DNA of 64,000 bases, taken from the NCBI GenBank assembly GCA_009692555.1, contig SHYY01000003.1, positions 25,937-89,936 on the forward strand. Direction: 5' to 3'. Positions 41,019-46,120 of this stretch are shown in pieces. Below the pieces are notes generated by a model. It ran no database searches and was not told the DNA's origin. It worked only from the letters and a program-made list of their open reading frames with translations. This DNA comes from Myxococcales bacterium. Lineage in GTDB: Bacteria > Myxococcota_A > Polyangia > Palsa-1104 > SHYY01. Each line of letters opens with the position of its first letter. Position 1 is the stretch's first letter. The position numbers and the translations under genes are program-made.

Positions 41019-41570
41019 CTACTCGATGTCGCTGATGACGAAGAGGCCCGAGCCGCCCTTGAGCGAGAGGTCGGCCTGGACGGTGGCGGTGCGCTCGTAG
41101 TGCGAGACGGTGGCGTCGCAGTTCAGGTTGCCGTTGGCATACAGACGCGAGATGTGGCCACCCAAGTTGCCAAGGGCGTTGGCGGTCGTGCTGTACCAGA
41201 AATAGTGCGGGTCATCGACCGAGAAGTTGAGCGCCTGCCACGTCGCCCCCTGCCACTGCGAGGTGTTGGGCTGGCACTTGTTACCCACCTGGCCGCAGCA
41301 GGCGTTGAGGGCCGGCGTAAACCCCTGCGAGGACGGGAACATGCGCTGGACGATGTTGCCCGCGCTGTCGGCGTGCTCGGCGACGTGGTAGGTGACCGTC
41401 GAGTCGTACATCTTGCGGATGTTGAGGGCCGCCTCGGTGGTCTTGGAACGCCGGATGTACTTGATGAACGCCGGGATCGCGACCGCCGCCAGAATGCCGA
41501 TGATGGCGACGACGATCATGAGCTCGACCAGGGTGAAGCCTCGAACCAGAGAACGCAGTTTCCGCGACAT
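41019..41570 (-). CDS. Type IV pilin-like protein (prepilin N-terminal cleavage/methylation domain)
   Basis: [11 protein letters not shown]|[36 protein letters not shown] has Gly-1, Phe+1 and Glu+5. The C-terminal globular part carries conserved Cys residues. Confidence 0.85.
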
Positions 41571-41621
41571 GAAAGCCTCCTAGAGAAGTGGTTGGGGTTG
41601 GGTGGGCAGTCGGGCGGCTAT

Positions 41622-41637
41622 CCAAGTTGTGTGCCAG
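41622..41637 (-). promoter_or_regulatory. Sigma54-like promoter CCTGGCAC-N5-TTGGA upstream of the pilin gene
   Basis: The -24 element is perfect. The -12 element reads TTGG instead of TTGC. It lies ~50 nt upstream of the ATG, which is preceded by GGAGGC. Confidence 0.35.
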
Positions 41638-41731
41638 GGAAGGAAGGCCGCACTGGCGGGGGGATCGTACCTCGAAGGCCTTGGATTGTGACCTTTTTTG
41701 TCACCGCGGGGACCTTTTCCGGCAGCGGCCG

Positions 41732-42298
41732 CTAATCGTTTTCGCTGATCATGAGGAGGGCTCCGCCGCCACGGATCTGGACCTCGCCATCGAGGGTGAG
41801 GGTGCGCTGGAAGAACGAGGTCGCGCCGTCGCAGTTGAGGTCCCCCATCGCCTGGACCTGGGAGAAGTCACCGACCTTGCTGCCAGCACCGAGGGCGTGC
41901 ACGGTCTGGTAGGAGAAGTAGAACGGCTCGTCGACGCTGAAGTTCAAGGCCTGCCAGGTGGGGGTCCGCCAGTGGGCGGGGTTTGGGGCGCACTTGAATC
42001 CGGGCGAGCCGCAGCAGGTGCCGAGGGCGGGACTGATGGACTGTGCGTCGGTGAACTGGAACGCGAGGACCTTGCCGGCGGCATCCGCGTGGATGGTGTG
42101 GTGGTAGGCGATCGCGGAGTCGTAGATGACCCGGATGTTCATCGTCGCCTCTACGGTCTTCGAGCGGCGGACGTAATGGATGAAGGAGGGGATGGCGATC
42201 GCCGCGAGGACGCCGATCACGGCGACGACGATCATCAGCTCGACCAGGGTGAAGCCGGCCGGGAAGGGCGTGGATGAGGCTCCGGGGCGCCGGTTCAT
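41732..42298 (-). CDS. Type IV pilin-like protein (paralog)
   Basis: MNRRPGASSTPFPAG|[36 protein letters not shown]. It shares [13 protein letters not shown] and NCD motifs with the neighbouring pilin. The start is set at ATG 42298; the listed ORF extends spuriously through the repeat. Confidence 0.85.
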   Translation of the reverse strand: MNRRPGASSTPFPAGFTLVELMIVVAVIGVLAAIAIPSFIHYVRRSKTVEATMNIRVIYDSAIAYHHTIHADAAGKVLAFQFTDAQSISPALGTCCGSPGFKCAPNPAHWRTPTWQALNFSVDEPFYFSYQTVHALGAGSKVGDFSQVQAMGDLNCDGATSFFQRTLTLDGEVQIRGGGALLMISEND

Positions 42299-42311
42299 GC
42301 GCGCCCGCCAC

Positions 42312-42327
42312 CCAAGAGCCGTGCCAG
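42312..42327 (-). promoter_or_regulatory. Sigma54-like promoter CCTGGCAC-N5-TTGGG abutting the 57-bp repeat
   Basis: The motif architecture matches 41622..41637, but the -12 element is only ~14 nt from the ATG. This implies a nearly leaderless transcript or a non-functional site. Confidence 0.3.
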
Positions 42328-42448
42328 GCTCAGTCCCCGAAGACCCAGGGGACGCTTTGGAGCCGCCTGCGGCGGGTCGGTGAGGCTCAGTCCCCGAAGA
42401 CCCAGGGGACGCTTTGGAGCCGCCTGCGGCGGGTCGGTGAGGCTCAGT
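42327..42448. repeat. Perfect 57-bp tandem repeat x2 plus an 8-bp third partial copy
   Basis: 42327-42383 and 42384-42440 are identical (GGCTCAGTCCCCGAAGACCCAGGGGACGCTTTGGAGCCGCCTGCGGCGGGTCGGTGA). 42441-42448 repeats GGCTCAGT, which contains the cytochrome stop codon. Confidence 0.95.
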
Positions 42449-44684
42449 GGGCATGCCAGCCCAGGGCGGAGTGGCAATCGGCGCAGCTCCAGCCGCGGAA
42501 CATGTGGTTGGGGTTCTGGGGGCGGTCCTTGGCGTGGCAGGTGACGCACTCGGTGCGGAGGCCGGTCCACTGGTTGTTCTTGTGGCAGTCGGCACACGGG
42601 GTGACGAAGTGGCGGCCGCGCAGGGGGAACTCGCTGCGGTCGTGATCGAAGCGCACCAGGAGCCAGCGATCGGGCTTGTGGCAATCGGCGCATTCGCGGC
42701 CCAGGGCGCCGCGGTGGGGGTCGCCGTGGCAGCTCTGGCAGGCGGGGTCGAGGCGGGCGCCGCGGGCCGTGTCGTGGCAGGTGAGGCACTTCACGGCGGC
42801 GTGGCGGCGCTCGAGGGGGAAGCCGGTCTTCTCGGCGTGCGCGAAGGGCGGGACGTCGGCGAAGCGGGTGGGCTGGTGGCAGCTCGTGCATTCCTTGCCG
42901 AACTGCGCGCCGTGGACCGCGGTGTGGCAGGTGGCGCAGGTGATCGGGCGCGCGACCTTGCTCAGGCGCTCGCGATCGGCGCCGTGGCAGGAGGCGCAGG
43001 CGCGCTTCGCGTGGGCGCCTGAGAGGGCGAAGCCGGTGGCGGCGGCGTGGTCGAAGTTCACGACCTCGTTGAAGCTGGTCTCGGTGTGGCAGCGACGGCA
43101 GTCGGTGCCGAAGCGGGCGCCGTGGGCGTCGGTGTGGCAGGAGGCGCAGGCGGTGGGTGTGCCGACGAACTTGCCGCCGGTGTGGCAGCGCGCGCACGCG
43201 ACCTTCTCGTGCGCCGCGCGGAGCGGGAAGGCGAACTTCGCGTGCTCGGCGAGGCCGATCGTCGAGGGCTTCCACGAGGTTCCGGTGTGGCAGTCGCGGC
43301 ACGACCAGCGCGGCGAGACGGCGTGGGCTCCGTCGTCCGGGGCGAGGTGGGCGCGCGCTTGCGAAGGCGCAGGCAGCGACGGTGATGCGGCTTTCCGCGG
43401 AGCCTTGAACTGGCCCTCGTGCGGGTCGCCGTGGCAGAGAACGCAGGCGTTCGGGCCGGGGACGAAGGCGCCCTTGGCAAAGCGGGTGTGGCAGGTCTGG
43501 CAGGCCACCGGGGAGTGCGCGCCGTCGAGCGGGAAGCGGGTGGTGTCGTGCGAGAAGCGCGCGGGGGTGAAGCCCTTGGTGTCGTGGCAGGCGGCGCAGG
43601 GGCCGAAGTCGCCGTGCTTGGGGGCCTTCGGGCCGGTCAGGAGGTGGCAGCTCTCGCACTTCGTCGGCGCGCCCTTGAAGATGCCGGGCCTGGTGTGGCA
43701 GCTCTCGCAGCCGACGGTGAGGTGCATCCCTTCGAGGGGGAAGCCGACAACTTTCTTGTTGTGGTCGAAGGTCTTCTTTTTCCAGGAGAGCGCGGAGTGG
43801 CAGCGCGCGCAGGCGCCGAGGTCCTCGTGCTTGAGATCTTTCTTGTGGCAGGAGGCGCACTCGAAGGGCGTGGGCTCGAACTTGTAGGCGGGGTGGCAGG
43901 AGAGGCAGGGCGCGGTCTGGTGCTTGCCCGGGAGGATGCAGGCGCAGAAGTCGTGGGCGTGGGTGGCCTTCTTCCAGTCGAGCGGGGTGTGGCAGGTGTC
44001 GCACGCGGCCTTGGTGCCGCCGTGCTTCTGCTCGTGGCAGTCGCCGCAGCTGGCCTTCGCGACGTAGTGGGTGCCGTTCTTGTGGCAGGTGGCGCAGATC
44101 AGGCCCTGGTGGCCGCCGATCATCGGGACCTTGTGATCGGCGGCGGTGCGCGTCGGGGGGACCCAGGCGGCGCTGCTGTGGCACTGCTGGCACTTCGGGC
44201 CGAGCGAGCCCTTGTGGTGGGTGTCGGCGTGGCAGCCGACGCAGGTGGTGGGGATTCCGGCCCATTTCGGGCCGTGTCCACCGTCGGGGTGGCAGCTCTG
44301 GCAGAGGGCCGGCTGGTGGGCGCCGGTGAGGACGACGCCGGTGACCTTGTGATCGAAGGTCTTCGGATCGATCGGCGGGGTGAGGCGGAAGTCCCGGCCC
44401 TTGTGATCGCCGTGGCAGGCGCTGCACTTCTGCTTGGCGAGCGGGCCGTGGAAGCCCTTGCCGGAGCGGACCTGGGCGGCGGTGTGCTCGTGGCAGGAGA
44501 GGCAGTTGGCCTGCGGGATGCCCTGGAAGGGGACGTGGCATTTGTCGCACTTGCCGTCGAGGGCGGCGTGCGGGGCGGCGAGCGGGCCAGGAGTGACGAG
44601 CCCGCGGAAGTCGGCGCGCGCGGATCTGGAGAGCAGCCCGAGAAGGGCGGCGACGGCGACGAGTGGGAGGGCGCGGCGGATCAC
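42444..44684 (-). CDS. Multiheme cytochrome c, 30 CXXCH motifs in 746 aa
   Basis: A GTG start overlaps the upstream stop (GTGA). The signal peptide is VIRRALPLVAVAALLGLLSRSARA. I counted 30 CXXCH motifs, about one per 25 residues, with many extra His residues as distal ligands (c3/c7-type density). Confidence 0.9.
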   Translation of the reverse strand: MIRRALPLVAVAALLGLLSRSARADFRGLVTPGPLAAPHAALDGKCDKCHVPFQGIPQANCLSCHEHTAAQVRSGKGFHGPLAKQKCSACHGDHKGRDFRLTPPIDPKTFDHKVTGVVLTGAHQPALCQSCHPDGGHGPKWAGIPTTCVGCHADTHHKGSLGPKCQQCHSSAAWVPPTRTAADHKVPMIGGHQGLICATCHKNGTHYVAKASCGDCHEQKHGGTKAACDTCHTPLDWKKATHAHDFCACILPGKHQTAPCLSCHPAYKFEPTPFECASCHKKDLKHEDLGACARCHSALSWKKKTFDHNKKVVGFPLEGMHLTVGCESCHTRPGIFKGAPTKCESCHLLTGPKAPKHGDFGPCAACHDTKGFTPARFSHDTTRFPLDGAHSPVACQTCHTRFAKGAFVPGPNACVLCHGDPHEGQFKAPRKAASPSLPAPSQARAHLAPDDGAHAVSPRWSCRDCHTGTSWKPSTIGLAEHAKFAFPLRAAHEKVACARCHTGGKFVGTPTACASCHTDAHGARFGTDCRRCHTETSFNEVVNFDHAAATGFALSGAHAKRACASCHGADRERLSKVARPITCATCHTAVHGAQFGKECTSCHQPTRFADVPPFAHAEKTGFPLERRHAAVKCLTCHDTARGARLDPACQSCHGDPHRGALGRECADCHKPDRWLLVRFDHDRSEFPLRGRHFVTPCADCHKNNQWTGLRTECVTCHAKDRPQNPNHMFRGWSCADCHSALGWHAH

Positions 44685-46120
44685 AGCGCGTACCCCAGCT
44701 GGACCAGCGTCCGGAGCTGCTTCCCGTCGAGGGCCAGCTCGGCGTCGAGGCCGGCGAAGAAGTCGCGCCAGAGCGCGAACAGGCGGAGGTAGGCGATCCG
44801 CTGCGCGCCCAGGACGAGCGGGAAGAGCTCGCTCGTCGGGCCGGCGTCCATGGCTTGCTTGGCGTGATTCGAGAAGGCGAGCCCGGTGCCGATCGCGTCG
44901 GTGTAAAGCACGCCGACGCGCGCGTCGAGCCAGGGGCGGAGGAACGATAGGCCGCCGGTGACGACGAGGTTGCCGCGCGGCTTCTTGCACTCCAGCGGCT
45001 TGGCGGGGTCGCACTCGATGCGGTCGACCTGGTAGACGTCGCCGCCGACGGTGGCGAAGGCGCCGAAGCCGGCGAGCAGGTTCTCCGCGTCGACCTGGCC
45101 CTCGAAGCGGTGGATGACGTCGGTGTTCTCGCGGAAGCGCAGACGGTAGCGCGCACCGACGCGGAGGGCGCGCCAGATCCGCACCCCGGCCTTCAGGGTG
45201 TGATCCTCGAACGAGCCGCCAGCCGCGGCGATCGCGTTGTTGAGCGGCTGCACCGGGACGAGCAGGCGCACGCGCTGGAAATCGAAGGCGTAGGAGAGGC
45301 GGAGGCGCTTTTGCGGCCGCCACTCACCGACGGCGTAGGCCATGAGCGATCCGATCGGCTGGCTGTCGACGGTCGGGACGTCGGTGAAGTGGCCGGCCTG
45401 CGACGAGTAGGTGACCAGGTAGCGCGAGCCAAGCGTCAGGCCGCCCGCGAGCATCACGTCGGCGTGGGGGAGGACGAGGAGCTGGGCGTCGAGGAAGTTC
45501 TCGTTGGTCTGACGGCTGGCCGGCGTCGCCTCGGCCGCGCCGCGCTGGAACTCGAGGAGATCGTCGGTGCGGGTGAAGAACAGCGAGGCGCGGACCACCG
45601 GATGGTCGACGGCGGCGCCGGCGCCGTAGAGGGGGAGAAGGTGGCCGCGGAAGGTGGCGTCGGCGCGACCGCCGGTGAAGGCGCGGACGCCGCCGTAGGC
45701 TTGCAGCGAGAGGGGGCCCAGGCGGAGGGTGGCCGCGCCGCCGTCGTTGATCAGCCAGAATCCGCCGCCGACCGGGAAGCGACCGACGGTGAGGTCGAGC
45801 CGCCCGAACAGGTCGTTGACCCGCAGGGAGAGGTTGTGGAGCTGGTGGCGCGACTGCTTGCTGTTGTAGCCGAGCGATGAGTCGGCGGCGAGGAACGACT
45901 CGCGATCGCGGTAGTCGAGGCGGAGATCGAAGCGCTTGCCGAGGCGGCGGAGATCGGCGCGCAGCGCGAAGCCGAGGTCGAGGTTGGCCGGGCTGCCGGT
46001 GCCGGGCTGGTTGACGCCGAAGAGATCGATCCCGCCGAGGAGGTGCAGATCGGCAGCGCGGGAGGCCCCGGGGGCAGCCGCGACGAGGGCCGCGGCGGCG
46101 ATCGCCAGGAGGCGTCTCAC
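44681..46120 (-). CDS. Putative outer-membrane beta-barrel protein
   Basis: The GTG start overlaps the upstream stop (GTGA). The signal peptide is VRRLLAIAAAALVAAAPGASRA. Alternating amphipathic strand patterns occur (RLDLTVGRF, LRLSYAFDF, VGARYRLRF) and the sequence is Gly/Asp/Arg-rich with no long hydrophobic helix. The C-terminus is ...VQLGYAL. No family was recognised. Confidence 0.5.
   Translation of the reverse strand: MRRLLAIAAAALVAAAPGASRAADLHLLGGIDLFGVNQPGTGSPANLDLGFALRADLRRLGKRFDLRLDYRDRESFLAADSSLGYNSKQSRHQLHNLSLRVNDLFGRLDLTVGRFPVGGGFWLINDGGAATLRLGPLSLQAYGGVRAFTGGRADATFRGHLLPLYGAGAAVDHPVVRASLFFTRTDDLLEFQRGAAEATPASRQTNENFLDAQLLVLPHADVMLAGGLTLGSRYLVTYSSQAGHFTDVPTVDSQPIGSLMAYAVGEWRPQKRLRLSYAFDFQRVRLLVPVQPLNNAIAAAGGSFEDHTLKAGVRIWRALRVGARYRLRFRENTDVIHRFEGQVDAENLLAGFGAFATVGGDVYQVDRIECDPAKPLECKKPRGNLVVTGGLSFLRPWLDARVGVLYTDAIGTGLAFSNHAKQAMDAGPTSELFPLVLGAQRIAYLRLFALWRDFFAGLDAELALDGKQLRTLVQLGYAL

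Follow-up and report, generated by a model that had tools for sequence, protein, structure and literature searches.

The closest described counterparts of the repeat analysed here are MIRUs (mycobacterial interspersed repetitive units) and the repetitive extragenic palindromic (REP) elements. MIRUs are units of 40-100 bp that occupy 41 loci in H37Rv and vary in tandem copy number (PMC2734929), and their insertion at start codons has little effect on expression (PMC12548453). REPs are reported targets of, and barriers for, 3' exonucleases (PMC12320835); termination and mRNA stabilisation are among their proposed roles, the ends of GTAG REPs frequently supply the stop codon of a flanking open reading frame (ORF), and CGTC REPs have no dedicated transposase (PMC3733652). 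Repeat termini that serve as stop codons and changes in tandem copy number are already described for REPs and MIRUs. Here, we analysed 64,000 nucleotides of a Myxococcales bacterium (assembly GCA_009692555.1, contig SHYY01000003.1, positions 25,937 to 89,936 of the forward strand; in the following called the window, with position 1 as its first letter) and focus on a tandem doublet of a 57-bp unit that lies between the stop codon of a 30-haem cytochrome gene and the sigma54-like box of a pilin gene. With a probability of roughly 85%, this doublet is a local array of two units that belong to a dispersed hairpin repeat, which is specific to the lineage, non-coding and non-autonomous and has recently multiplied in a single, uncultured Myxococcales species. 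It is selfish DNA of the REP/MIRU kind rather than a purpose-built regulatory site for the pilin promoter, and a dedicated function is not needed to explain it.

Tandem Repeats Finder describes 42326-42448 as a repeat with a period of 57 and 2.2 copies that match at 100% and contain no indels. Read along the minus strand, the sequence runs CAT GCC CAC, the first unit TGAGCCTCACCGACCCGCCGCAGGCGGCTCCAAAGCGTCCCCTGGGTCTTCGGGGAC (42446-42390), an identical second unit of 57 nt (42389-42333), a trailing partial copy TGAGCCT (42332-42326) and GGCAC. The cytochrome gene has its stop codon in the first three bases of unit 1 (TGA, 42446-42444), and further TGAs follow in the cytochrome frame at 42389-42387 and 42332-42330. 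The preceding AC and the trailing TGAGCCT make up a 9-bp direct repeat, ACTGAGCCT, that bounds each unit; the last T of the partial copy doubles as the first T of the TGGCAC box. Each unit contains two hairpins: hairpin 1 (CCGCC-GCA-GGCGG) at 42420-42432 in unit 1, 11 nt past the cytochrome stop codon, and at 42363-42375 in unit 2, and hairpin 2 (GTCCCC-TGGGTCTTC-GGGGAC) at 42390-42410 and 42333-42353, respectively. The RNA folding energies are -7.7 kcal/mol for hairpin 1, -10.9 kcal/mol for hairpin 2 and -19.1 kcal/mol for the whole unit. Altogether, the doublet separates the cytochrome stop from the sigma54-type pilin promoter by 114 bp of hairpin DNA.

Unit 1 matches both the profile and the covariance model of the repeat family (see below) over positions 1-57. 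The two units differ from the family consensus, TGAGCCTCATCGACCCGCCGCAGGCGGCTCCACAGCGTCCCCTGGGTCTTCGGGGAC, at two positions, with C at position 10 and A at position 33; both differences are common to both units and their combination is found in no other copy of the genome. A preliminary description, made from the letters of the window alone, had proposed a perfect 57-bp tandem duplication with two hairpins per unit, either very recent or actively maintained. The duplication and the hairpins are borne out, and a recent origin in place is supported by the private variants that the units have in common. It had further pointed to a period of exactly 19 codons with in-frame TGAs. This is a consequence of a unit of 57 nt that begins with TGA; it is correct at the focal site but does not hold as a trait of the family, in which subfamilies of 54-56 nt exist.

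The same description had missed that the unit is a dispersed element of high copy number, and with this the meaning of its other points changes: the genome-wide search for the 57-mer leads to about 125 sites. BLAST with a 64-nt query returned at least 49 matches on about 40 contigs of the host genome (88-100% identity), blastn-short returned 116 matches on 74 contigs, an nhmmer profile built from 43 full-length copies returned 140 matches that group into 125 sites, and a covariance model that includes both hairpins returned 130 matches. In total, about 100 contigs of the host carry the family, with some 130-140 units at about 125 sites. Consistently, words of the repeat reach about 100 times the depth of the flanks in the source metagenome; the runs that contain the window sequence are freshwater metagenomes.

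Outside the host, copies are scarce. BLAST searches of 30 related genomes identified clear relatives only in a genome of the same genus (G001), with four copies at 83-87% identity, and one short match of 29 nt in a genome of the same family; when G001 was searched with its own variant of the element, seven copies were found. The covariance model, applied to 42 genomes of the order, had 130 matches in the host, seven in G001 and none in the other 40. A core 23-mer had no match in the GTDB species genomes and a core 24-mer had none in the JGI metagenome contigs. Judged by these counts (130 copies in the host, seven in G001, none in 40 others), the family is restricted to the genus, with a burst in this one species.

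The 5' end of the element is sharp (C|TGAGCC): flanking sequences are unrelated up to the C at position -1, which is present at 91 of 99 sites. The 3' end is GGGGAC|T(GA). Terminal inverted repeats are absent, as neither end is an inverted copy of the other, and there is no duplication of a variable target sequence: the flanks have nothing in common but the C at -1 and T(GA) at +1. Of 103 unique copies, 83 have a fully paired hairpin 1 (general form CCGCC-NNN-GGCGG) and 80 a fully paired hairpin 2 (GTCCCC-N7-9-GGGGAC). The loop of hairpin 1 is GCA or GAA, and the loop of hairpin 2 varies (TGGGTCTTC, TGGGTCCTC, TGGGCCC, TGGGTTC, CTGATGC, CGGATGC) while its stem is kept. Compensatory pairs are found in both hairpins: for hairpin 2, ATCCCC/GGGGAT in both genomes and GCCCCC/GGGGGC in G001, and for hairpin 1, (C)GCGCC/GGCGC(G) in G001. 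The support from covariation is modest, because there is little variation of the stems within the burst, and most of it comes from the comparison of the host genome with G001.

Most sites hold a single unit. The 12 multi-unit sites (of 125) contain between 1.4 and about three units, all of them head-to-tail, and there are no neighbours on the opposite strand within 400 bp. At five head-to-tail doublets, variants private to the site are common to the units: C87 has CACCCC together with GGGTATTC, C64 has a AAAGATCCGCCGGAGGCGAC version, and the units are identical on C132, on C229 and at the focal site (C241). These shared private variants indicate that doublets arose repeatedly, by duplication in place, like those of MIRU-VNTR loci (PMC2734929).

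A different type of compound site was seen three times. At C209:621-788 and C221:25350-25460, a unit of subfamily B (TGAGTTTGTTGACC...GTCCCC-CTGATGC-GGGGAC) is nested in a standard unit after position 28 (GGCGGC^TCC); the junction is again C^T, with no target duplication. At C195:35587-35664, a subfamily-B unit is directly followed by the 3' part of a standard unit (from about position 27), also with no target duplication.

To relate the element to stop codons, each flank was assigned a coding strand and a reading frame by its GC periodicity (240-nt windows), a crude measure that is nonetheless frame-exact at 70% GC. At 40 of 79 same-strand sites, the TGA of the unit is the stop codon of a coding-like upstream ORF. 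In a stricter test with ORFs validated by the periodicity of GC content at third codon positions (GC3), this was the case at 41 of 118 sites, while the control frames +1 and +2 gave 4 and 6. A second TGA directly behind the element is present at 22 of 30 stop-codon sites, compared with 12 of 60 others (Fisher p = 1.6e-6). The C-termini of five genes with an element at the stop codon were compared with G001. Three of them end at the identical residue and with TGA in G001, with no element behind: Smr (AVYVLLRR*), PIMT (GPARA*) and ClpB (EAA*). The other two, a STAS protein and an aminotransferase, differ from their G001 orthologues by one codon. The three empty sites of G001 indicate that the TGA of the element sits on the ancestral stop codon, leaving the proteins unchanged. 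In gaps between co-directional genes, the element is more often in sense orientation (51 versus 22, p = 9e-4), which is largely due to the stop-codon sites; once these are set aside, the two orientations are about equally common.

At the other end of the element, no consistent relation between its 3' end and downstream start codons was found, in a test that is uninformative in a high-GC genome; an in-frame ATG could come from the element in four of 42 antisense cases. The unit is open in four of its six frames. At about nine sites (including C277:15524, C154:7335, C203:6511, C132:6081 and the N-terminus of a kinase on C229) a high-GC3 frame is present on both sides with no stop through the element: these sites could be insertions within genes, like Rickettsia palindromic elements, or spurious long ORFs at 70% GC. 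At C229:37413-37526, an antisense doublet directly follows an ATG that overlaps the upstream stop codon (TGATG). This doublet is in frame with a 531-amino acid Ser/Thr kinase ORF and would extend the protein by 2 x 19 residues (SPKTQGTLWSRLRRVDEA-P/Q) behind the methionine; no orthologue of the kinase that could serve as an empty site was found in G001. For annotation, the about 125 host sites and the seven copies of G001 are one element, and neither the focal doublet nor the doublet of the C229 kinase should be taken for a locus-specific regulator.

Among the known systems, MIRUs are alike in being small units at many intergenic loci of a high-GC genome that can form head-to-tail arrays (here, 57 bp at about 125 loci, 12 of them multi-unit). 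They are also alike in that their ends coincide with neighbouring stop or start codons and the genes are barely disturbed (PMC2734929, PMC12548453), just as the TGA of the 57-bp unit is the upstream stop codon at 41 of 118 sites. In contrast, sequence and phylum are unrelated, MIRUs hold a short ORF coupled to the downstream start whereas the 57-bp unit has no start codon in the TGA frame, and the unit described here consists of two conserved hairpins and is mostly present singly. REPs, too, are short and GC-rich stem-loops; their copies number from tens to thousands, are confined to one species or genus and are mostly extragenic, with a few in ORFs. Like REPs and their paired form, REPINs, the family is a high-copy and mostly extragenic imperfect palindrome. 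However, the 57-bp unit has two distinct hairpins rather than a single palindrome and does not fit the published definitions of GTAG- and CGTC-tagged REPs (PMC3733652). CGTC REPs have a 3-nt tail, stems of 8-9 bp and loops of 4-5 nt, compared with stems of 5-6 bp and loops of 3 and 7-9 nt here, the CGTC found at the base of hairpin 2 is mostly base-paired (GTC is in the stem) and not an unpaired tag, and CGTC REPs are mostly head-to-head dimers, of which the 57-bp family has none. REPIN-like inverted pairs, head-to-head or tail-to-tail, were not seen among the family sites.

Derivatives of IS200/IS605 resemble the element in their subterminal hairpins, the absence of a variable target duplication and a short junction preference (C^T, favouring C^TGA), but the preference of the 57-bp element is graded and not for a strict tetranucleotide, and no TnpA or partner transposase was found. 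Bacterial miniature inverted-repeat transposable elements (MITEs) such as Correia/NEMIS are likewise small, non-autonomous, high-copy and hairpin-bearing; they differ from the 57-bp family, which lacks terminal inverted repeats and a target duplication of fixed length. Rickettsia palindromic elements are also small palindromic repeats and are able to sit in frame within coding regions, while most 57-bp copies are intergenic or at stop codons and the in-frame cases described above are candidates. A permissive Rfam scan of 41500-43000 found nothing in the repeat and two chance-level matches elsewhere (E = 4.9 and 8.9). Integron attC sites (59-base elements) were dismissed by inspection only, with no search run: the sites of the family are scattered over about 100 contigs instead of forming cassette arrays, and the unit has no inverse-core and core sites.

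The simplest reading of the mechanism is as follows: the element would integrate between C and T, most readily at C^TGA and where the target matches more of the element's own 5' end. On landing on a TGA stop codon, its first three bases would become the stop and the old stop would move to the 3' flank; the protein would be unchanged and the insertion could survive. Most other insertions into CTGA would fall within genes and be purged by purifying selection, leaving the intergenic ones and those at stop codons. At the cytochrome locus, the element would have hit the stop codon, followed by duplication of one unit in place, by slippage or by unequal exchange between the 9-bp direct repeats (ACTGAGCCT). 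As a consequence for the locus, the hairpins may block 3' exonucleases or may slow termination or read-through, as with REP elements. A recent burst that is restricted to one species, with empty sites, exact coincidence with stop codons and doublets, is useful for asking how REP/MIRU-type elements without RAYT spread.

A more elaborate version goes further: a hairpin element that is transposase-less or differently mobilised would home to C^TGA by microhomology of its 5' end, replace the stop and grow arrays, with a copying mode (template switching or a single-strand circle intermediate) distinct from both REPIN/RAYT and DDE MITEs, and its doubling at the focal site would have been favoured because it brought a displaced activator site within the 3' end of the cytochrome gene back into helical phase with the sigma54 pilin promoter. 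The 114 bp correspond to about 10.9 helical turns, compared with 5.4 for one unit. As a whole, we consider this combination rather improbable.

Several observations count against the explanation as a mobile, dispersed repeat, or are not accounted for by it. The match of the 3' flank to the unit's own start is graded (T at 59, TG at 37, TGA at 28, TGAG at 14 and TGAGCC at seven of 79 sites), which is at odds both with a fixed duplication of the target and with a strict target site. No copy of the element carries an ORF, and a search for Y1_Tnp/RAYT (PF01797) had no match in the host genome, which is 80% complete, while control genomes responded. Mobility is deduced from the distribution and the empty sites, with no insertion event observed. 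The focal locus itself offers no empty site: the C-terminal 251 amino acids of the cytochrome have no orthologue in the three closest genomes, and orthologues at greater distance (53% identity) have TAG as their stop and lack a pilin gene downstream; the closest named relatives of the cytochrome, also at 53% identity, are from metagenome-assembled genomes labelled "Myxococcales bacterium". The shares of co-directional, convergent and divergent gaps among the element sites do not differ from those among 1004 element-free gaps (p = 0.33-0.53), and there is thus no statistical sign of a function at 3' ends beyond the coincidence with stop codons. Finally, the exact copy number at the focal site rests on the assembly and a single unitig with k = 31.

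This unitig is central to the question of whether the locus truly has two units. The source assembly is a short-read metagenome bin of 283 contigs (6.1 Mb, 80% complete, 70% GC), the two units are 100% identical and the repeat has more than 100 genomic copies, all of which would suit a second unit that is an artefact of the assembly; Logan contigs of the source runs (k = 31) also break inside the repeat, as expected from this k and a repeat that is present more than 100 times. However, a 49-nt unitig of run X1 exactly covers 42362-42410 and crosses the junction between the units, joining one unit's end to the beginning of a unit with the focal site's private CAC variant, and therefore the tandem junction exists in the reads. 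The depth of the unitig (6.5, with 5.6 and 8.4 for the single-copy flanks) fits two units and speaks against an assembly artefact, the CAC variant is found at the junction of no other tandem site of the genome, and doublets with slightly differing units on C87, C113, C229 and C64 mark doublets as a real feature of the family. A true locus with only one unit is thus very unlikely. A promoter-flank 26-mer, aimed at strain variants with other copy numbers, had no match in the JGI metagenome contigs.

The genes on either side of the doublet bear on what it might do there. The upstream gene encodes a cytochrome c7/c3-type multihaem protein (42444-45323, minus strand; 959 codons as listed) with exactly 30 CXXCH motifs, the number given in the preliminary description; its stop codon is supplied by the element. 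Downstream of the repeat lies pilin-like gene 1 (41732-42298, minus strand), which has the pilin N-methylation motif (MNRRPGASSTPFPAG/FTLVELM..., PF07963 N_methyl), and the proposed sigma54-like -24/-12 box is also in place: TGGCACGGCTCTTGG (TGGCAC-N5-TTGG; 42312-42326, minus strand) abuts the repeat. The ATG of pilin gene 1 (42298) follows the TTGG after 14 nt and lacks a Shine-Dalgarno sequence, so that the transcript would have almost no leader. The window contains two matches to TGGCAC-N5-TTGG, compared with 0.16 expected by chance, each just upstream of a pilin paralogue, and there are 12 sigma54-like motifs in the genome; on these grounds, the sigma54-like pilin promoter is probably real. 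The closest pilin homologue in G001 has a different upstream region. A frame of 287 codons that runs from a GTG in the cytochrome gene through the repeats into the pilin gene (41732-42595, minus strand) was rejected as an artefact of high GC content, because no start codon is found in it between 42595 and the ATG of the pilin gene (42298).

The second of the two boxes, TGGCACACAACTTGG (41622-41636, minus strand), precedes a second pilin gene (ATG at 41570) that has a leader of 52 nt and an AGGAGG Shine-Dalgarno sequence. About 60 nt upstream of its -24 box is a perfect palindrome, GTGAC-N7-GTCAC (41688-41704), a candidate activator site. No 57-bp unit is present upstream of this second promoter, and no copy of the palindrome was found upstream of pilin gene 1. 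For pilin gene 1, an activator site must fall either inside the cytochrome coding region or inside the 114-bp insert, and the position of the insert is relevant for dissecting the regulation of the cytochrome-pilin locus, a putative electron-conduit cluster.

Some clusters of REPs, or bacterial interspersed mosaic elements, bind IHF, and repeats can be recruited secondarily. In the preliminary description, the two units had been suggested as tandem binding sites for a bacterial enhancer-binding protein; they would then form an upstream activating sequence through which a PilR-like sigma54 activator drives the pilin promoter. Such sequences are regularly placed some 80-150 bp upstream of -24/-12 promoters. 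The units do span about -27 to -140 relative to a sigma54-like box of a type that is probably real, but the suggestion did not survive the genome-wide comparison: TGGCAC-N5-TTG[CG] is present within 250 nt of one of 125 element sites, the focal one, and absent from the other 124. Moreover, the promoter of the second pilin gene is of the same type and has no unit upstream but a different palindrome, both orientations of the element and all classes of intergenic gaps are represented among the sites, and in G001 the units sit behind unrelated genes. Taken together, a role as enhancer is extremely improbable.

Less easily set aside, though in our view still unlikely, is that the doublet is kept for a domesticated, REP-like function as terminator, attenuator, insulator or stabiliser of the mRNA 3' end that separates cytochrome from pilin expression; a terminator, insulator or processing hairpins had been the second suggestion of the preliminary description. 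There are four GC-rich hairpins in sense orientation behind the stop codon, the first one after 11 nt, with stems that are conserved and covary, and a pilin gene with its own promoter is immediately behind the array. By analogy with REPs, it is plausible that the hairpins act as a barrier at the mRNA 3' end or modulate read-through or termination. On the other hand, the repeat does not have the hairpin with a directly following U-tract that defines an intrinsic (Rho-independent) terminator: behind hairpin 2 comes UGAGCC, and within 42326-42448 nothing scored as a terminator-like site. The region also folds no better than shuffled sequence (z = +1.2), and neither the distribution of the family over gaps, with no preference for 3' ends over divergent gaps, nor its orientations, about equal apart from the stop-codon sites, point to such a function. 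We therefore favour the reading of the doublet as a dispersed repeat that landed on a stop codon and was duplicated there.

A search among interrupted copies for an autonomous, ORF-bearing version of the element was negative: the split copies are units interrupted by a small element with terminal inverted repeats, or 5' halves beside unrelated genes. One such interruption is at C155:7003-7653, where a unit is split by an element of about 600 bp with terminal inverted repeats (GGGTGCTTAACGGAG.../...CTCCGCTGTTAAGCACCC), which contains (GTAGTC)n and (GACTAC)n hexamer arrays and an ORF on the opposite strand; 8 bp of the 57-bp unit itself (CAGGCGGC) are duplicated with it. On C15 near 72573, another unit is cut short by the same inverted-repeat end, and a related end is found on C184, upstream of a pilin paralogue.

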